Below the pieces are notes generated by a model. The model saw nothing but the letters and a program-made list of their open reading frames with translations. It was not told the DNA's origin and did not search any database. Of a stretch of DNA of 64,000 bases, positions 6,522 through 21,308 are shown in pieces. Origin of the DNA: Candidatus Omnitrophota bacterium (GTDB lineage: Bacteria; Omnitrophota; Gorgyraeia; Tantalellales; Tantalellaceae); assembly GCA_015231405.1 (NCBI GenBank), contig JADGBR010000013.1, forward strand, positions 7,222 to 71,221, read 5' to 3'. Made by a program: the position numbers and the translations under genes. How positions within the stretch are numbered: the first letter of the stretch is position 1; each line of letters opens with the position of its first letter.

Positions 6522-6959
6522 ATGATAATGAGATATTTGTTAGTCGCGGTACTTGTTCTAAGCGTTGCGGGGTGCGCCACTCCCAGGAAAAAAGAGACGC
6601 CTAAGTCGGACGTCCAGGTCCTGAAGGAAGAGGTCGGCTCGCTCAAGCAGGAAATGGCTGAAAAGGAAAAAAGGATACAGGAGCTCGAGACCACTAAAGG
6701 TGCCGGGTATTCCGATTACAGCGCCGGCTCAGAAGAGACAAGGACGAGGTCCTATGGTTCAGGTTCCAGCCAGGCTCCGCAGACTGCCAAGAACATCCAG
6801 AAAGCGCTTAAGAATGCGGGTTTTTACAGTGGCGAGATAGACGGTAAGATCGGCAAAGGGACGAGGAAAGCCGTACGGGAATTCCAGGGGTCAGAGGGAT
6901 TAAAAGTCGACGGTATCGTCGGAAAAAAGACCTGGTCCAGACTCCAGTCGTATTTATAA
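6522..6959 (+). CDS. lipoprotein with C-terminal peptidoglycan-binding domain
   Basis: Lipobox LSVAGC; coiled-coil middle; C-terminal PG_binding_1-like LKNAGFYSGEIDGKIGKGTRKAVREFQ. Confidence 0.6.
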   Translation: MIMRYLLVAVLVLSVAGCATPRKKETPKSDVQVLKEEVGSLKQEMAEKEKRIQELETTKGAGYSDYSAGSEETRTRSYGSGSSQAPQTAKNIQKALKNAGFYSGEIDGKIGKGTRKAVREFQGSEGLKVDGIVGKKTWSRLQSYL

Positions 6960-7031: not shown

Positions 7032-7661
7032 GTGGGGAATAAAATGGGAATCATATCTCTTCTTTTCCACGATCCGGCGGCGTTCCTCATACTTGTGATA
7101 CCGCTTCTGTATTCCGTGATAGCCCACGAAACGGCGCATGGATGGGCGGCGTATCTTTTCGGCGACGATACGGCGAAACGCTCCGGGAGGCTGTCGATCA
7201 ACCCTCTCAGGCACATCGATCCCGTCGGGACAATGGCGCTTGTATTCGTAGGATTCGGTTGGGCCCGCCCCGTGCCGGTCGATTACTCAAAGCTAAGGCC
7301 TTTCAGGCTGGGGCTCATCTGCGTTTCCTCGGCGGGAATATTCGCCAACATACTTATAGCTGCCGGAGCTTTGTACGTTATAAAACTCGAACCCTTGTGG
7401 ATGACGAAAACGCCGGCCGTCATTTTGTCGGTCATGGCAAGGATAAACATTGTACTTGGGGCGTTTAACCTGATACCCATACCTCCGCTCGACGGATCAA
7501 AGATCCTTTTCGGTTTTCTTCCGTCCGCGGCGCAGGATAAATTCATGAGACTGGAACGGTACGGTTTTCCGCTGCTCTTAGTCTTGCTTATCACGGGGGC
7601 TATTGAGCCCCTCATCAAAGTGATTGAGAACGTGATCCTTCATATGTTGCTCGTAAGGTAG
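7032..7661 (+). CDS. M50 family (site-2 protease-like) zinc metalloprotease
   Basis: HETAH zinc motif in TM helix, LSINPLRHIDPVGT motif, multiple TM segments. Confidence 0.7.
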   Translation: MGNKMGIISLLFHDPAAFLILVIPLLYSVIAHETAHGWAAYLFGDDTAKRSGRLSINPLRHIDPVGTMALVFVGFGWARPVPVDYSKLRPFRLGLICVSSAGIFANILIAAGALYVIKLEPLWMTKTPAVILSVMARINIVLGAFNLIPIPPLDGSKILFGFLPSAAQDKFMRLERYGFPLLLVLLITGAIEPLIKVIENVILHMLLVR

Positions 7662-8800: not shown

Positions 8801-11800
8801 TTAAGCTGAGATAAGCAGGCGCCAGGCGGCGGATATCAGGCCGGGGAGGTCTTCGGATAGGAGGGCCATGGCGGGCAGGGCCAACTGGGACTTCGAGCCT
8901 GTCCGGATGTTATTCAGCCATATTTTCATGATCCCGCAAAGGGTCCACATATCGCGTCCGGGTGTCTTTTCGACCGGGACAGAAAAAGATATTTTATCGT
9001 TGGCTTCATTCCGCAAGCCGTCCCGAAGGTCCTCTGCGGCGCCCGCTTCCAGGGTATCAGTAACGACCAGCAGGTATTCGTTCATTTGCGGATCCATTCC
9101 CGCACAAGCCATCTCGCGCATTACCACCGCCCTGTGAAGTTTGTTGCCCGGGTCAAGCGTTATCCCCTGTCGAGACATGAAAGCCATGACCTCGGCTATT
9201 CTGCCATCGGTGATCGAGAGATCGATCTTTATCCCGTCAAGCCCCAAAGCAAGCCGAAGGCGGTCTTTATCGAGCGCTGTTAAGGGCAGGAGATCGTCCT
9301 CTTGGCCGACGACAAATATCTGCAGGGATATGGGGACCCGAGATCGCGCGAAATATTTTTTGACGGCGCCCAGGGCCAGGGGGATATCCGGCATGGTCTT
9401 AAAAACGGAGACAGGGAGGCATAGACGTAATTTAACCGGGTGTTTTCTTTCCAGATCTTCAGAGAAATCCTGTTTCTGTTCGATTATGGAGCTTTCCAGT
9501 TCCGTTTTACGCGCCGCTTCCGCGAAAGCGTCCGCGGCTTTACCGAAAGCATCGGTCTCGCGGGCATCGACCGTAGCGCGGAATAGCGCCGCTTCGTGAG
9601 TTCCGGACGGAGTAACAATGCCCGGGCCTGGGACTCCCGGTGTTGTGTCCGGGGGTTGTTCCGTTACCGGCCTAAGTGACCGTGTTCCCGCGTGCGGTCT
9701 TCGTGTGCCGGGGATGTCGAATTGTGTCAGGCGGGAACGCCCGGTTCTTTCTCTCTCCATTGGCGGGTTAACGCCAGCGGTTTTTTCGCTTGGAGCCTCT
9801 CCGGATAAGGCGGGTTGAGCGTCGGATATCGCCGGGGCTACTTTTTTAACTGCTTCTTCGGCGAGTTGTTCCAGTGCTTCCATGGAATCCGTGTCTAACA
9901 CCGGTTTACCGTTGACCACATGGATGGCGTACCCTTTTTCCTCGGTAAGCTGTTTTTCGAGCAATTCGTCAAGAGATGTGAACCTGGAGCGGGCGATCTC
10001 GGACAGTAAGTGGTCGACTGCAGCGGCGGATCCGCCCGGCAAAGCCGATAATATACCCTTTAGCTCGCCGGCTATTGTTCCCAGATCTTCGAAAAGTATC
10101 CCGTCCTCGCGTAGAGGATAGAGCCAGCCTTTTTCCCGCATGACGCCGTAAACCTGGCTTGGATCGAGACCGGTTCGGGCGAAAATATCCTTCGGTATGA
10201 CTTTCAGCCTCTCGGAAGACGACACAAGGGTTATGAGCTCGACGTCCCTGGTCTGGCCTATTCCTATCAGGCGGTCGGCGTCGTCAAAATTCATCCAGGG
10301 TCTCGATAGTCTTACCATTGTGGATATATGGAAATCAGCGCCCGGAGCCTGGAATAGGTTCAGCGACTGGCCGAGGAGCCATGTTGTCCCGATAAGGATC
10401 TTCGGAGACATGTCCTTGCGGAAGGCGTCTATGCCCGAGAGGCGGTCCCCTAGCGAAACAGCTTGATTGAGCCCGATAGCCGCGCTGGAACCTGATCTGT
10501 CCAGGTATTTACGATTGTACCTCTCGACGAGTATCTCTATTTCCTCGACGAAATCAACAAGCACAACGACCTTGCCGTTATCTGCGAGACGGTCCTCGAT
10601 TATTTTGTCGAGTTCAAGCACTTTCGGGCAGATTTCCTCCTCGTCCGGGGACCCGTCGGCTTTTTTCGGCAATTTCCCTTCGGGGAGGATAAGCCTTAAG
10701 TCGACGTTCGCTCGGCGCTCGAGGTCGAAACGCCTGAAAATATGAGCGGCAATTTCGGCCTTGTCTTCCCGGGCTTCGCTAGCTTTCCAGGCCGGGAAAT
10801 CGCTGCGCTGCATGGCGATAGTCCTTTCCTGGGCTCTTGACATTGATACGAAACGGGTCTCGGAGATAACGTCGGTAAGCTCCGGGAGTACCTGTTTTCG
10901 TGTCCAGCGGACCATGACGGGCTCGATCGCGAGGAAAAGACGGTCGTTATCCATGCGCTCGAGATATTCGCGCCTGACGTTGTCCGGTGGGACTGTTTCC
11001 CGGGAAGGCGACGGCCCGGCGGTTGGGTGCTCCCGGGGATCATAATCTTTCCGCATCCATAAGAGCGGCTCTATTACATCCGTAGGCCTTTTTACGACCG
11101 GACGCGCGCTGACGCCGATCCGGTATTTTGACGGGATGCCGACAATAACGGGCGCGCGGACAGTCTTATCGCCTTTACGAAGATTTTCCACTTCGTCTAT
11201 TATGTGAGCGTCCGGGGCGAATCGTTTGATGCCGTCTTCTGCGGCGACGATGGCTTCGTAATTGGCGATGAGGATGACCTTCTGGCCGGAAGCGGCAAGG
11301 TTCGCGGCGCGGGACGCCTGCTCGGCGATATTCCCCAGGGAGCTGTCTATAACGTATATTTGATATCCGAGAGCAGGGTCCAGCCTGTCCGCCAGCTCGT
11401 TCGCCCATTCGTATTTGGCCTGGTTCGGCACGGTGACCAGAAGACGGCTGACGTCGTAGGCGCCGTCTTCGGATCTTACATTGAGGGCGGAGAGAGCCGC
11501 GGTTATGGTCTTTCCGGTACGGGCGTCGCTCGCGAACCAGGCGCATCGTTCTTTGGGATCTTCCAGTGTATTTACCGCCTGGGCGACGCTGTAGCGTTGG
11601 TAGGGCATTAGCGGTGCGACTTTGCCGTTATAGCCGCGCGGAACAAAGCCGTGCCATAGCTCGAATTCTTTAAGGATCTCATCCAGTATCTTTTTGGTGA
11701 GCGAGTTCCTGCCGGCAGAGACGGACTCGCGGCTTAACGGCGATAAAGCAGTATTTGCGGAACTGGTCCCGGCTTTCAGCAGAGCGCCGTAGAAGAGGCC

Positions 11801-14800
11801 CCGCCAAAACCGTTTAAGCGCTTTTTCCTTCCGGAGGGCGCTGGAGAGGCCCAGCTCTTCCACTATCCCGGCAAGCATTTTTGATAGGCTGCCGGAAAAT
11901 TCGTCGGACGATATCACCGGGCTTGTAATTTTAGCCTGGTCGGCGATTTCGCGGTAACTGACGGTGAGGATATCGTTAATAGCCTTCTTAGTGAAACGGT
12001 CCCCGAAAAAATAGATGAGCATTTCTCCGAGGGTGCCCTTATCGCACGCGGTCATTTTAATGAAGTCGATGAGGCCGACGCGGCGCATGATCCTGCCAAG
12101 TTCGCCTTCCGCGGCGACGGCCCTGAGGCGGTCTTTTATGACGTTGTCCGGAGCGAGGCTCGAGAAGACCCCGAGAGTGAACCACATCCTCAGTTTTGAA
12201 AGCAGCTTTTTCCGCGCGGTCGATACCGTTTTTAACCGCTCTTCCCAGAGCACGCGGACCGGTTTGTCGGCGTCCGGACCGGGGGCGGACGACTCGTAAT
12301 AAGAGCCGGTGATACCAGCTACATCTTTACCGTTAAGCACATCGGAGAGGATAGCCCTTTGCATGGGATCCTTGAGCCTTATCGCCAGCCATGAATCCAG
12401 CTTAAGGTCTATGACCCGTTCGGGCCTCGGATGGGAACGCCCCGGCCTGTAAGGTTCCGGCAAAAGATCGCTCGTGGATCTGCCCGTGGTAGCAGGGGAT
12501 AATTCCTCTGCGAGGCTGTCCTTATCGGGAAACCCCGCCGTCCTCCGTATTCTTTGCTTAAGTTCCGGGGCTCCGTTCGGTATCGCTTTAAAAAACTCAA
12601 CTGCCTTTATAAGAGCGGTTCGCTCAAGCTTCAGGACATCATCTTCGGGGATCATTAGTAGAGAGCTTATCTCGCCGGACGTCATGAAAGACATATAACT
12701 TCCGGTCTCGATAGGGCCGTATCTAAGGAAAAGTACGCGGGCTTCGGCCGCGGTGAGTTCACGGCATAGACGAGTGAGTTCAAGAGATGTTGCTCTGCTC
12801 GTTACAACGTTTGACGGTATGGGCGCCGAGTCGAGTTCCTGAAGGTCCGCAAAGAGTTCCGCTAAAGCGGCCTCGTTGTGGGGCTTTCTGAGTGCCGCTT
12901 CGGCCTTGAGCTTTATCTGGCTGACACGGGTGGCGGATACGTCTTTGGCAAACTTTTTGCCGATGGTGTCCTGGGGCAACACCTCGAAAGCATCCAGCCC
13001 ATAAGAATGCCGTATCGTTACCCGCTGCTGATAGGTCAATGTTTTGAGGAGCGAGGAGATGCGGGCCGATGTCTTTTCCAGGAGCTTGTCGCGTTCCAGG
13101 GATGCTTGTATGTTATGACCCGAAAGGGAAGCGAGATCCGGGTCGTTCGCGAAGGCATCTTCCAAAGATCCGGCCGAGCGATCAAGGATAATATTTACGA
13201 CAGCCAAAATCTCGGGCGTGGTTTTTAGGAGAGTTTCCCGAATGGCTTCTTCGGGGATTTTGTCGCTTTCGGATAGTTTCAGAGCGATAGGGCCTTCGTA
13301 ATAATCGCCGGGTTCCCTTGTGAGCCTGAGGATCGATGCGAGGATCGTCCCCCAGAGCCTCCCCGAGATATCGCGGGAGCCATCGTCGGCTAAATGATGC
13401 GGGAAGCTTGCCCATTTGGAGGCGATAAGCTTTTCTATGAGTCCGCTCCAAATTTTTCCGTTGTAATACTGGCCGAATGACTTAGGGTTTGGGTCTTTCG
13501 GGTCCGTAATCATCGCATCAAGAGTCCGATATCCTTCAAGGATAGCCTCATCGCGGAAATCGTCTATCGAGTGGTCGGTGTATTTTATCCCGACAAAGGT
13601 ATTGAAAAAATACCGGACCGCGTAGTATGCATCCTCTCCGATCCGAGTGAACGCGGGGGCCGATCTTTCCCCGAGGACCTTAATGGCCTTTTTCCTTATG
13701 ATGACGTGGGAGGAGCGGACAAGCTTAAGGAGGGCCTGATGGCTGAGCCTGCTAAAGTCCTTTTCAAGGAGGCGTTCGCTCTTTCCGGCTTCGACCAGGC
13801 GCGGCGAGTGTTTGATAAGCCGCCGCTGAATGGCATCCACGGTTTTTCTGCGCGCGATGTCCTCGAAGAAAGACCTGCCGAAATAACTGTTAGAACTTTT
13901 GGAGGAGTGCGGCCGGGTTATCATGTAAGTGACGGAGAGGAACCTTTGCTCGGCCGGGCGCAAATTCCGCGCTGAGACGTATTTCCGGTCGACCAGATAT
14001 TTAAGGGTGAACGCCGTCGCGGCTATTTTTCTTACCAGGAGTTTTTCTGCTTCACCGCCGGCTTTAAGCCCGAAAAATTTATCTTGCGGAGCCATGTCCT
14101 CTCCGGGGAATTTGATATTCCCGGCGAGGCCCGATCTTATCTTTTCGTCTTCCGTAAGGTCCGCGAGGAGAGTCGAGGCCGCGCCGCTATTATTATAGGC
14201 GCCACGCGCTATCAAGAGGTCCTTGTATGCCCGGAGCATCCAGGGGATCAGGATACGTTTACTGAGCCTGACGTAATTAGTCCCGTTCTTTTCTTCCATC
14301 CCAATGAGAAGCGTTACAAAATCCGCATAGGTTACTTCACTGACAAGGCCTAAAGGATCGAGGTCGAGATCGGGCACGGTTATGTATTCCGGGGTGTCTT
14401 TACCGGGAACGATAAAGACCTTGACGCCGTTCTTTACCATAAATTCATGATATAAGCCCAGAGGGTTGGCATAGCTGACATGTTTTCTGAGCATGGAATA
14501 GCGAAGGTCCAGATCACGCCCCGGATCATCGATACCCGACCAGACTGCCAAAGTAGCATTATTCGCAGTTTGAGCCAGCCCGGGACCTCCGGAAAACCCA
14601 TCCAAAATATAAACCGCGGCAATGATCGTAGGAAGGAGCCTTCTAAATAACATCGTGGTCTGAAAAAACATAAGCGGTATTGTATCAGAAAGCAGGGATA
14701 AACCAAACTTTATTACGCTTAACGTATTGACTACGCCGAGAATCAGCAGTAGCCTGCGACAGCGCAGAGAGTACGGCAGAATGATCGCGGGGAAAATATT

Positions 14801-14806
14801 TATCAA
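8801..14806 (-). CDS. giant multidomain protein: SNF2-family (SF2) ATPase core preceded by two sigma-70 region-4-like HTH modules
   Basis: 2001-codon ORF. SNF2 motifs LMPYQRY..ASDARTGKTITAALSAL (I), HIIDEVENLRKG (II), GVSARPVVKRPTDVIEPL (III), ..LGQSLNLFQA..GIGQTRDVELITL (V/VI). Sigma r4-like LTYQQRVTIRHSYGLD...ATRVSQIKLKAEAALRK and LTAAEARVLFLRYGP...LKLERTALIKAV. Start uncertain (TTG at 14806; ATGs at codons 46 and 52). Confidence 0.75.
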   Translation of the reverse strand: MINIFPAIILPYSLRCRRLLLILGVVNTLSVIKFGLSLLSDTIPLMFFQTTMLFRRLLPTIIAAVYILDGFSGGPGLAQTANNATLAVWSGIDDPGRDLDLRYSMLRKHVSYANPLGLYHEFMVKNGVKVFIVPGKDTPEYITVPDLDLDPLGLVSEVTYADFVTLLIGMEEKNGTNYVRLSKRILIPWMLRAYKDLLIARGAYNNSGAASTLLADLTEDEKIRSGLAGNIKFPGEDMAPQDKFFGLKAGGEAEKLLVRKIAATAFTLKYLVDRKYVSARNLRPAEQRFLSVTYMITRPHSSKSSNSYFGRSFFEDIARRKTVDAIQRRLIKHSPRLVEAGKSERLLEKDFSRLSHQALLKLVRSSHVIIRKKAIKVLGERSAPAFTRIGEDAYYAVRYFFNTFVGIKYTDHSIDDFRDEAILEGYRTLDAMITDPKDPNPKSFGQYYNGKIWSGLIEKLIASKWASFPHHLADDGSRDISGRLWGTILASILRLTREPGDYYEGPIALKLSESDKIPEEAIRETLLKTTPEILAVVNIILDRSAGSLEDAFANDPDLASLSGHNIQASLERDKLLEKTSARISSLLKTLTYQQRVTIRHSYGLDAFEVLPQDTIGKKFAKDVSATRVSQIKLKAEAALRKPHNEAALAELFADLQELDSAPIPSNVVTSRATSLELTRLCRELTAAEARVLFLRYGPIETGSYMSFMTSGEISSLLMIPEDDVLKLERTALIKAVEFFKAIPNGAPELKQRIRRTAGFPDKDSLAEELSPATTGRSTSDLLPEPYRPGRSHPRPERVIDLKLDSWLAIRLKDPMQRAILSDVLNGKDVAGITGSYYESSAPGPDADKPVRVLWEERLKTVSTARKKLLSKLRMWFTLGVFSSLAPDNVIKDRLRAVAAEGELGRIMRRVGLIDFIKMTACDKGTLGEMLIYFFGDRFTKKAINDILTVSYREIADQAKITSPVISSDEFSGSLSKMLAGIVEELGLSSALRKEKALKRFWRGLFYGALLKAGTSSANTALSPLSRESVSAGRNSLTKKILDEILKEFELWHGFVPRGYNGKVAPLMPYQRYSVAQAVNTLEDPKERCAWFASDARTGKTITAALSALNVRSEDGAYDVSRLLVTVPNQAKYEWANELADRLDPALGYQIYVIDSSLGNIAEQASRAANLAASGQKVILIANYEAIVAAEDGIKRFAPDAHIIDEVENLRKGDKTVRAPVIVGIPSKYRIGVSARPVVKRPTDVIEPLLWMRKDYDPREHPTAGPSPSRETVPPDNVRREYLERMDNDRLFLAIEPVMVRWTRKQVLPELTDVISETRFVSMSRAQERTIAMQRSDFPAWKASEAREDKAEIAAHIFRRFDLERRANVDLRLILPEGKLPKKADGSPDEEEICPKVLELDKIIEDRLADNGKVVVLVDFVEEIEILVERYNRKYLDRSGSSAAIGLNQAVSLGDRLSGIDAFRKDMSPKILIGTTWLLGQSLNLFQAPGADFHISTMVRLSRPWMNFDDADRLIGIGQTRDVELITLVSSSERLKVIPKDIFARTGLDPSQVYGVMREKGWLYPLREDGILFEDLGTIAGELKGILSALPGGSAAAVDHLLSEIARSRFTSLDELLEKQLTEEKGYAIHVVNGKPVLDTDSMEALEQLAEEAVKKVAPAISDAQPALSGEAPSEKTAGVNPPMERERTGRSRLTQFDIPGTRRPHAGTRSLRPVTEQPPDTTPGVPGPGIVTPSGTHEAALFRATVDARETDAFGKAADAFAEAARKTELESSIIEQKQDFSEDLERKHPVKLRLCLPVSVFKTMPDIPLALGAVKKYFARSRVPISLQIFVVGQEDDLLPLTALDKDRLRLALGLDGIKIDLSITDGRIAEVMAFMSRQGITLDPGNKLHRAVVMREMACAGMDPQMNEYLLVVTDTLEAGAAEDLRDGLRNEANDKISFSVPVEKTPGRDMWTLCGIMKIWLNNIRTGSKSQLALPAMALLSEDLPGLISAAWRLLISA

Positions 14807-15011: not shown

Positions 15012-15245
15012 ATGCCTTACAATGCGGAACTTGATGAAAACATGTTCTCAAAAAGCTGGGAATCGGAAACCGACAGACTGACTGTCAGTATCTACTCATA
15101 CAATCACGGCCAGAAAAAACTTCAGATATCCCGGGAAAGCAAATCCCCTCAGGGCGACCTCAAATTCGCCAAGCTCGGAAGGATGACGAAGGATGAGATA
15201 ACAGCGATCATTCCACTCATACAGGAAGCGATCGGTAATATGTGA
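15012..15245 (+). CDS. PC4-like / YdbC-like ssDNA-binding small protein
   Basis: 77 aa; SKSWESETDRLTVSIYSYNHGQKKLQISRE...LKFAKLGRMTKDE resembles bacterial PC4 (transcriptional coactivator p15) fold family; strong RBS. Confidence 0.45.
   Translation: MPYNAELDENMFSKSWESETDRLTVSIYSYNHGQKKLQISRESKSPQGDLKFAKLGRMTKDEITAIIPLIQEAIGNM

Positions 15246-21218: not shown

Positions 21219-21308
<90 letters not shown>

Follow-up and report, generated by a model that had tools for sequence, protein, structure and literature searches.

The gene and its product

The 64,000-nucleotide stretch analysed in this study, hereafter the window, comprises positions 7,222 to 71,221 of contig JADGBR010000013.1 (assembly GCA_015231405.1), which belongs to a metagenome-assembled genome (MAG) of Candidatus Omnitrophica. 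The element in question is one giant gene, an open reading frame (ORF) on the minus strand at 8801..14806, which runs uninterrupted across 2001 codons from a TTG at 14806 and encodes a SNF2-type ATPase. The database places the start of the protein at M52 (14653), which gives 1950 aa, under the locus tag HQL30_06730 and the name 'hypothetical protein'; an exact look-up of contigs encoding it returned no record. Residue numbers follow the 2001-codon frame, as in the initial annotation, which was made from the sequence alone and which described the interval 12574-13054, corresponding to residues 585-745 of this ORF, as two helix-turn-helix (HTH) modules of the sigma-70 region 4 type. Both of the peptides that it cited were located within the ORF, LTYQQRV...AEAALRK at residues 590-641 and LTAAEARV...IKAVEFF at residues 684-739.

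We conclude with high confidence that these modules, termed M1 and M2, are genuine region 4 domains, that M1 belongs to a complete, degenerate sigma2-sigma3-linker-sigma4 unit (residues ~368-660) and that M2 is an extra, decayed copy. The features of the gene are as follows.

8801..14806, minus strand: giant ORF, 2001 codons from TTG; annotated start M52 at 14653, 1950 aa.
14570..14653, minus strand: N-terminus resembling a signal peptide or membrane anchor, residues 52-79 (hydropathy; MLFRR-LLPTIIAAVYIL-DGFSGGPGLA/QT, the slash marking the putative cleavage site).
13412..13705, minus strand: sigma-2-like domain, residues 368-465 (family motif YYxxRYxxExLAGxxF...DFxQEA).
13175..13363, minus strand: sigma-3-like helical domain, residues 482-544 (alignment of family profile A4, AlphaFold2, Foldseek).
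12827..13054, minus strand: M1, sigma-4 domain with regions 4.1 and 4.2 and the C-terminal tail LRKPHNEAALAELF, residues 585-660 (Pfam, NCBIfam, shuffles).
12572..12814, minus strand: M2, second, degenerate sigma-4 copy, residues 665-745 (NCBIfam, shuffles, hhalign).
12137..12424, minus strand: HTH3 (tentative), residues 795-890 (family-wide motif, AlphaFold2).
11627..12136, minus strand: pre-motor domain of unassigned fold, residues 891-1060 (conserved in all family members).
10157..11626, minus strand: SNF2-type ATPase core, residues 1061-1550 (Pfam SNF2-rel_dom, motifs).
9752..10009, minus strand: short conserved post-motor segment, residues ~1600-1685 (weak recurrent phmmer matches).
8804..9751, minus strand: variable C-terminal region, residues 1686-2001, ending in ...LLISA (no family matches).

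In piecewise Pfam and NCBIfam scans, no match was obtained for the N-terminal 300 aa, for residues 740-1070 or for the C-terminal 460 aa.

Region 4 modules

In a 217-aa fragment, M1 matches the Pfam model Sigma70_r4 (PF04545) at 25.7 bits (E 8e-6; gathering score 24.1), and in the whole protein it reaches only 18 bits, which is below the gathering score. When M1 alone was compared with NCBIfam, 16 matches were returned, all of them C-termini of sigma factors (E 1.8e-6). M2, for which the Pfam scan gave no match, was also recognised by sigma models only in NCBIfam, with an E value of 5e-5 to positions 233-304 of the 318 positions of SigD. The region 4 assignment of the initial annotation is thus borne out for both segments, and it is further supported by profile-profile comparison, in which hhalign aligned the M2 family profile with the M1/RpoD region 4 profile over 54 columns (probability 95.9%, E 6e-9). 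In the PDB, the sequences closest to the M1/M2 segment come without exception from region 4 of RpoD or SigA, and the best matches of the modules are not effector domains of the LuxR/NarL type; sigma factors match instead. Alignment scores were also compared with those of shuffled sequences, the references being region 4 of E. coli sigma-70 and of T. maritima RpoD. M1 scored 76-77 (shuffles 24 +/- 4.6; 0 of 1000 reached this score), and M2 scored 50-51 (shuffles 23 +/- 4.2; 0-1 of 1000). We therefore regard the sigma-4 identity of both modules as established.

The tail of M1, LRKPHNEAALAELF, corresponds to the LRHPSRS..L..FL segment of primary sigma factors, and orthologues of M1 match Sigma70_r4 in five of seven members of the protein family described below (best E 2e-16). 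In M2, region 4.1 is well preserved (LTAAEARVLFLRYG), the turn region carries a 4-residue insertion and the 'recognition' helix PEDDVLKLERTALIKAVE is acidic, with a net charge of -2; the corresponding helices of M1 (+4) and HTH3 (+6) are basic. Counterparts of M2 were found in the relatives P0002 and P0004, where they are repeated. A recent tandem duplication as the origin of the pair was considered and rejected because the direct similarity between M1 and M2 is not significant (112 of 1000 shuffles reached the score). The two modules are old copies that diverged separately.

The sigma-derived unit

M1 does not stand by itself. The motif YYxxRYxxExLAGxxF...DFxQEA is common to all 11 family members with sequence upstream of the motor, 250-580 residues ahead of the motor. 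In the giant protein, it is represented by YYAVRY at residue 394 and DDFRDEA at residue 415, the latter aligned with the region 2.2 sequence DLIQEG of sigma-70. After the YYxxRY motif come a helical segment, a linker of variable length or sequence and M1, which is the order sigma2-sigma3-linker-sigma4, and a low-confidence linker at residues ~546-570 occupies the position of region 3.2.

Comparison of the family profile A4 with all PDB sequences gave 58 matches below 1e-10, every one of which is a sigma factor. The best of these, B. subtilis SigA (E 2.4e-24), is aligned by HMMER in a single collinear stretch that extends from region 2.2 as far as the end of region 4.2 (profile positions 61-271 to SigA residues 162-370), and the alignment passes unbroken through regions 3.0 and 3.1. 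Full-length sigma chains score ~90 bits with this profile and chains that consist of region 4 only score ~70 bits, and thus the upstream part contributes roughly 20 bits; profile A2 shows the same pattern. The non-self matches of the family profile in a set of 5.8 billion proteins were two in number, both RpoD (E ~1e-12).

A single-sequence AlphaFold model of residues 560-760 was uninformative (pLDDT 40). The informative model, which was built for residues 355-900 from a 10-sequence family alignment, has a mean pLDDT of 72, with values of 80-90 in the sigma-2-like domain, 81-88 in the sigma-3-like domain, 64-87 in M1 and 46-82 in M2. The structural check of the modules, like the profile comparison, had the outcome expected by the initial annotation: in a Foldseek search of the PDB, the 49 best matches of the model are all sigma factors, over ~290-310 aligned columns, and they include isolated sigma-2 and sigma-4 domains. 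Because the assignment rests partly on this shallow-alignment model, the sigma-2 and sigma-3 identity is graded as probable.

The sigma-derived unit, which lies inside the N-terminal half of the giant SNF2 ATPase, is very likely closest to sigma factors of the primary type (groups 1 and 2). It shares with RpoD, SigA and RpoS the order sigma2-sigma3-sigma4, a putative region 2.2 motif D-[LF]-x-Q-E, the scaffold of regions 4.1 and 4.2 and the tail LR.PSR...L..FL; unlike them, it is embedded in a protein of 2001 aa, has lost the -10 and -35 residues and is accompanied by a second sigma-4 copy. The two HTH modules of the initial annotation therefore hold as region 4 domains and not as free-standing inserts, since M1 is the sigma-4 part of a unit that begins ~220 residues upstream, at residue ~368. 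Their extent was also incompletely described, given a further possible HTH downstream at residues ~795-890.

HTH3 and the SNF2 motor

A disordered linker after M2 leads to this third domain, HTH3, which is modelled with a pLDDT of 84-95 and whose motif QxxxLPxxLxGxSxxEI..TG....V.....A...LRxWFTLG is conserved in all 10 aligned members; the giant protein carries an insertion of ~18 residues ahead of the last helix. The pattern resembles region 4 of extracytoplasmic function (ECF) sigma factors. As a third sigma-4 copy HTH3 was not accepted and is kept as tentative, given weak hhalign values (E 4e-4 to 3e-3) and no match in Pfam.

The fusion in one reading frame with a SNF2 ATPase, as initially annotated, is confirmed by Pfam SNF2-rel_dom (PF00176), which matches residues 1091-1348 at 40.7 bits against a cut-off of 24.9 (E 1e-11 on the fragment). 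ATPase motifs I (ARTGKT, residue 1095) and II (IIDEVEN, residue 1202) are accompanied by V-like (GQSLNL, residue 1479) and VI-like (DRLIGIGQT, residue 1515) motifs. The Helicase_C model has no match in the giant protein and matches one of seven family members (E 0.0014). As a single sequence, the SNF2 core found no PDB match at E<0.01. The best SNF2 relative of the family profile in the PDB is the Sulfolobus SWI2/SNF2 core 1z63_A (E 3.5e-9), on which the alignment spans residues 154-494 and hence both lobes; farther out, the motor matches ordinary SNF2 and Helicase_C proteins. The post-motor segment (residues ~1600-1685) gave weak recurrent phmmer matches to P0004, P0005, P0006, P0007 and P0009.

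A motor of this kind coupled to RNA polymerase would have a known parallel. The only well-studied SNF2-RNA polymerase coupling in bacteria is that of RapA (~970 aa), which is achieved through a dedicated non-sigma domain. Models of RapA/HepA, including RapA_C, gave no Pfam or NCBIfam match at E up to 1, and therefore the giant protein is not a member of the RapA family; RapA was also absent among the 60 best of the 83 PDB matches (E up to 0.1), in which 1z63 is the best SNF2 match.

Family of relatives

A word-indexed homologue search with the whole protein found the protein itself only, and the same kind of search with the family alignment found the protein and two RpoD proteins. An exhaustive HMMER search with residues 441-1640 against 1.84 billion representative proteins gave 99 matches, about ten of which are giant proteins (1403-7647 aa) that share more than the generic SNF2 domain. 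When contigs from genomes and metagenomes were scanned, four relatives were recovered in place, together with one further member, L005; of the four genome loci, three are titled Omnitrophota. Besides the giant protein, the family comprises P0002-P0012 and L005, all of its clusters are singletons, and viral contigs yielded no relatives. The initial annotation had called the architecture unusual, and we agree: about 11 relatives were found among the 1.84 billion representatives, all given names are 'hypothetical protein', and our literature search found no report of a sigma2-sigma3-sigma4 unit fused to a SNF2 motor.

The sigma unit always lies N-terminal to the same SNF2 motor. P0002 (3387 aa) is aligned to the giant protein in one stretch from residue 371 to residue 1547, and the sigma-like region of at least 10 homologues shows 14-25% identity. 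It could be argued that separate sigma and SNF2 genes were joined by an error of sequencing or assembly or by a frameshift, especially as the source is a MAG. The frame is open across all 2001 codons, however, and the same domain order is found in those at least 10 divergent homologues from independent assemblies; this recurrence excludes an assembly artefact, and we consider an error of any of these kinds scarcely credible. With high confidence, we take the combination of a sigma unit and a SNF2 motor to be the mark of a family of giant proteins that is small and very divergent and in which the named sigma-bearing copies belong to Omnitrophota.

P0007, a protein of 729 aa from a MAG labelled Myxococcaceae, starts with HTH3 and lacks the sigma unit. 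What is minimally conserved is therefore HTH3, the pre-motor domain and the SNF2 motor, a core that may extend beyond Omnitrophota.

Several members carry N-terminal repeats that are absent from the giant protein of the window. In P0002, a block with the motif H-E-x-x-E-L-x-L-W-(W/F) occurs three times (residues ~170-330, ~1170-1330 and ~1690-1830), and helical repeat arrays with units of ~50-90 aa occupy residues ~480-1150 of P0002 and ~650-1600 of P0008. The genes that flank P0010 (L004 3106-5634 and 10296-11882, plus strand) are paralogues of its N-terminal domain, with 50% identity over 286 aa and 46% over 406 aa, which represents a local expansion of a secreted-looking domain.

Conserved and lost residues

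The residues of the family were mapped to the numbering of E. coli sigma-70, and we take the mapped positions to have their usual sigma-70 roles in core binding, -10 melting and -35 contact. In the sigma-2 domain, all 11 members have an acidic residue at position D403 and F in place of L404; Q406 is preserved in 5 of the 11, and E407 likewise in 5. A helix specific to the family, YYxxRY, takes the place of region 2.1. The tryptophan dyad is absent, with W433 preserved in one member of 11 and W434 in none, and Q437, T440 and R441 are not preserved. The giant protein has G and K at positions 433 and 434 and S, I and K at 437, 440 and 441, and Y430 alone is retained. At the -35-contact positions R584, E585, R588 and Q589, the residues are A, T, S and Q in M1 and E, D, L and K in M2 (helix PEDDVLKLE). 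These contact residues are intact in L005n alone and partly so in P0002.

The region 4.1 scaffold and the LR.PSR tail are widely preserved across members, and the most conserved elements are the region 4.1 helix L[TS]xRExxxIxxxxGL of M1 and M2 and the tail LR.P(S/H)...L..F of M1. The M1 orthologues range from the near-canonical L005n (VTRERIRQIEAKALRKLRYPTR, Pfam E 1.3e-17), through P0002, P0006 and P0009 (40-45 bits against RpoD region 4), to the decayed copies of the giant protein, P0003, P0008, P0010 and P0011. Because the determinants of both -10 and -35 fail, the unit should be called a pseudo-sigma. Its residue pattern is that of a sigma factor that no longer reads promoters and in which the scaffold and some of the surface for core binding are retained. 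In the course of evolution, a sigma factor of the primary type, which is the canonical ligand of core polymerase and binds it with high affinity, appears to have lost the residues for promoter reading, and what was left of it to have been joined to a SNF2 translocase. The proposal in the initial annotation that the modules target the motor to promoters is consequently weakened by the A, T and S at the -35 positions, by the acidic helix of M2 and by the missing dyad.

A related possibility is that the sigma-4 and HTH modules form an array that anchors the SNF2 translocase to DNA, site-specifically or not, with no contact to polymerase. Sigma-4 is an HTH that binds DNA, M1 and HTH3 have basic recognition helices, as noted above, and L005n retains all of the -35-contact residues (VTRERIRQIEAKALRKLR). 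There is also a precedent in BrxL, the N-terminus of which is a sigma-type tri-helical HTH on a large ATPase and is presumed to be a DNA-binding accessory domain (PMC12839542). BrxL differs, however, in that it has a single HTH and neither a sigma-2 nor a sigma-3 part, and an array of this type leaves the sigma-2/sigma-3 portion retained upstream in 11 of 11 members unexplained. Moreover, the base-contacting residues vary freely among members, the helix of M2 is acidic, and in P0008, P0010 and P0011 the sigma-4 domain is barely recognisable whereas the sigma-2-like motif is kept. We therefore consider a pure DNA-anchoring function unlikely.

The unit might alternatively be a working sigma factor with a built-in motor, which would form a holoenzyme at unusual promoters and would use the SF2 translocase, in place of the tryptophan dyad, to open DNA. 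The order sigma2-sigma3-linker-sigma4 is complete and the motor motifs are intact; the melting residues are missing, and an external energy source would therefore be needed in such a scheme. By their logic, sigma-54 with its AAA+ activators and TFIIH-XPB are analogues. Nevertheless, the -10 and -35 positions are not conserved within the family, which makes a shared promoter code unlikely, the sigma-4 domain is strongly decayed in several members, and we found no precedent in the literature. The probability of this explanation is low, well below that of DNA anchoring.

Loss of the promoter-reading residues would also be expected if the unit mimicked a sigma factor toward a partner other than polymerase. 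PhyR exemplifies the reuse of a degenerate sigma domain for protein recognition; it differs from the giant protein in that its ECF-like domain (sigma2 and sigma4 only) is fused to a receiver, has an anti-sigma partner and is not joined to a motor. By analogy, the pseudo-sigma would bind a protein of the anti-sigma type and thereby control the motor or sequester the partner. No anti-sigma-like gene adjoins the giant gene in the window or its relative at locus L006, however, and the best matches are primary sigma factors rather than ECF or PhyR-type proteins. We rate such a partner as slightly less probable still than a motorised sigma factor.

Proposed docking on RNA polymerase

Since a putative region 2.2 motif and the sigma-4 scaffold persist and the promoter-reading residues are lost, docking onto RNA polymerase is the best reading of the unit: it would be a docking device for the core enzyme and no longer a promoter-reading initiation factor. 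We hold this functional proposal tentatively, at somewhat less than an even chance. Region 2.2 of the sigma-2 domain would sit on the clamp helices of beta', and the sigma-4 scaffold would sit on beta's flap-tip helix. The docked unit would thus place a SNF2 motor that translocates on double-stranded DNA on or next to RNA polymerase, and ATP hydrolysis could dislodge, recycle or reposition the polymerase or the proteins in its path. The basic M1 and HTH3 could add a non-specific grip on DNA, and the acidic M2 would more likely make protein contacts.

This would be the same job as that of RapA, which performs it through a different, non-sigma binding domain. The initial annotation had named RNA polymerase and a RapA-like logic as one possible target; the conserved features are compatible with this half of its proposal and give it a better rationale. 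RapA binds the core polymerase and misses the holoenzyme, since the sites of RapA and sigma overlap, and a single hydrophobic patch of the beta flap-tip helix is bound by RapA as well as by region 4 of sigma-70 (PMC8501970). In the analogy that we propose, both proteins join a SNF2 motor to a core-polymerase-binding module at a sigma-overlapping site. They differ in that RapA/HepA binds polymerase with its own N-terminal domain and its ATPase lobes instead of a sigma-derived unit, and in that it is cytoplasmic, whereas the giant protein has 2000 aa and a signal-like N-terminus. Mfd/TRCF is a second parallel, an SF2 double-stranded DNA translocase that is tethered to RNA polymerase by an interaction domain and pushes or displaces it; Mfd differs in being RecG-like rather than SNF2-like, in binding beta through a Tudor-like RID and in having no homology to sigma.

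Several observations weigh against the docking proposal. Q406 and E407 are kept in only about half of the members, and the giant protein has D at position 406. Without region 4, the matches of the sigma-2/sigma-3 part are in register and marginal, with FliA as the top PDB match (E 0.064) and an hhalign E value of 0.056 to an RpoD-like protein; weak NCBIfam sigma matches to this part were seen in only 3 of the 10 members scanned, and Pfam matches to region 2 or region 3 were absent in the giant protein and the scanned relatives. The assignment of these two domains accordingly leans on the 10-sequence AlphaFold2 model and should be read as a prediction. No conserved neighbours tied to transcription were seen in the window or at the P0012 locus, and six members have a signal-like start; if it were cleaved and the protein exported, the protein would not act on the cell's own polymerase. 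Finally, contact with RNA polymerase is purely an inference, and the same applies to the direction of translocation and to the outcome. With all of this taken into account, the explanation as a whole, in which the sigma identity is combined with docking, is the best that we can offer, and its probability falls just short of one half.

If docking proves true, the family would be a natural experiment on which parts of a sigma factor suffice for core binding, it would represent a second independent route to motor-assisted recycling or eviction of polymerase, and, among the many giant proteins of Omnitrophota that lack annotation, it would be the first to offer a functional handle. Sigma-like HTH domains on big ATPases (BrxL) and degenerate sigma domains (PhyR) are known; what appears to be new is a full sigma unit together with a SNF2 motor, which is rare and phylogenetically narrow. 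A family labelled 'hypothetical protein' thereby gains a testable annotation, a pseudo-sigma unit with a SNF2 motor.

Protein ends and possible export

An N-terminus that resembles a Sec signal occurs in six members: the giant protein, P0002, P0006 (from an upstream Met, L002), P0010, P0011 and L005n. These segments have a basic n-region and an h-region of 12-13 hydrophobic residues, and positions -3 and -1 are occupied by small residues, as in MLFRR-LLPTIIAAVYIL-DGFSGGPGLA/QT, MKKDAIQK-AIVGILVCVFTL-QNSVFA/LA and MLKRK-VYTIILSITLSLL-QATSTLA/SV. In the giant protein, the Kyte-Doolittle maximum over 15 residues is 1.87, at residue 6; the corresponding segment of L005 lies at 6588-6800. Such an N-terminus is odd for a protein that combines a sigma unit with a DNA motor.

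The C-termini also show recurrent endings. The giant protein (8804-8818, minus strand), P0002, P0006, P0011 and P0012 end in '-SA' (LLISA, LIQSA, FAQSA, IAISA, LALSA) and P0008 ends in '-SQA', and the C-terminal regions of these proteins are otherwise not alignable. The '-SA' end may be a terminal signal for sorting or degradation. A different ending, GGIDL...(~40-60 aa)...PV(I/L)xN(I/L)Px(L/F)LG(L/I), is found in P0004 (L003), P0005, P0009 and P0010 (L004).

These ends bear on an explanation in which the protein is exported from this putatively predatory or parasitic nanobacterium through the putative Sec signal, or injected, and acts in a prey or host cell, where the sigma mimic would capture foreign polymerase or promoter DNA and the motor would disrupt transcription or the nucleoid. 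Besides the six signal-like N-termini and the shared C-terminal ends (five members in '-SA' and a sixth in '-QA'), this explanation would account for the sigma-4 domain of L005n, which is near-identical to region 4 of the housekeeping RpoD, as is expected of a mimic. In addition, a published description of Omnitrophota portrays them as predators of ultra-small size whose giant proteins are largely extracellular (10.1101/2023.11.21.568195). The true start codon of the giant protein is uncertain, however (M46, M52 or the TTG), and P0008, P0009 and P0012 have no signal-like N-terminus. No secretion-system genes lie nearby, the neighbours being a methyltransferase, an AlkD-like enzyme, tetratricopeptide repeat (TPR) proteins and a polysaccharide cluster, and Sec export of a cytoplasm-type ATPase of 2000 residues would be unusual. 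We consider an effector function improbable, more so than DNA anchoring.

Two bolder versions may be added, which share one estimate and are, taken jointly, somewhat less probable again. In the first, the protein would be an effector exported by a predatory or parasitic nanobacterium through a Sec-type signal, and its sigma mimic, the primary-sigma-like unit with the extra sigma-4 copies, would occupy the sigma site of the victim's core RNA polymerase or promoter DNA, and the SNF2 motor would then strip or stall transcription complexes; if true, inter-bacterial effectors would gain a new class, one directed against the transcription machinery. In the second, which is cytoplasmic, the sigma-derived adaptor would couple an ATP-driven translocase to bacterial RNA polymerase with a TFIIH-like logic. 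A real signal peptide would point to transcription-targeting effectors in predatory nanobacteria.

Gene neighbourhood

The immediate neighbours of the giant gene are a convergent gene for a class I methyltransferase and a divergent small ORF with an AlkD-like repair gene; further off lie the TPR proteins, a tRNA-Ser and a large polysaccharide/radical-SAM cluster. The neighbours of P0012 are unrelated to these. The giant gene was also considered as part of a defence system, and this was rejected, given no PADLOC match, no relative on viral contigs and no conserved neighbours; the window likewise shows no defence-island context. It was not found to belong to the known anti-phage SNF2/sigma families (DISARM, BREX-type, MZA MzaA), its neighbours are of the housekeeping kind, and MzaA was matched through region 4 only (E 5e-4, 19 bits against a cut-off of 800). 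Because the neighbours are not conserved and there is no defence match, the gene appears to act alone.

A type II/IV-like secretion locus has been reported beside giant genes of Omnitrophota (10.1101/2023.11.21.568195), and the operon at 23.5-58 kb was considered as such a locus. This assignment was rejected in favour of a polysaccharide/radical-SAM cluster. The region 23570-58211 (plus strand) is a run of about 30 co-oriented genes, of which ten were sampled; among these are two radical-SAM/SPASM enzymes and one radical-SAM enzyme that binds B12, together with glycosyltransferases, a flippase (Polysacc_synt), a PMT_2 protein, an asparagine synthase and a DUF218 protein. The run appears to form a surface-polysaccharide cluster that is unusually rich in radical-SAM enzymes.

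The tRNA-Ser (anticodon CGA) at 21219-21308 (minus strand) is the sole tRNA of the window. The small ORF divergent from the giant gene comprises 77 codons at 15012-15245 (plus strand) and has no significant Pfam match; it is preceded by a strong ribosome-binding site (AAGGAGGAGAA), and its stop codon and the GTG with which the AlkD-like gene starts overlap (ATGTGA).

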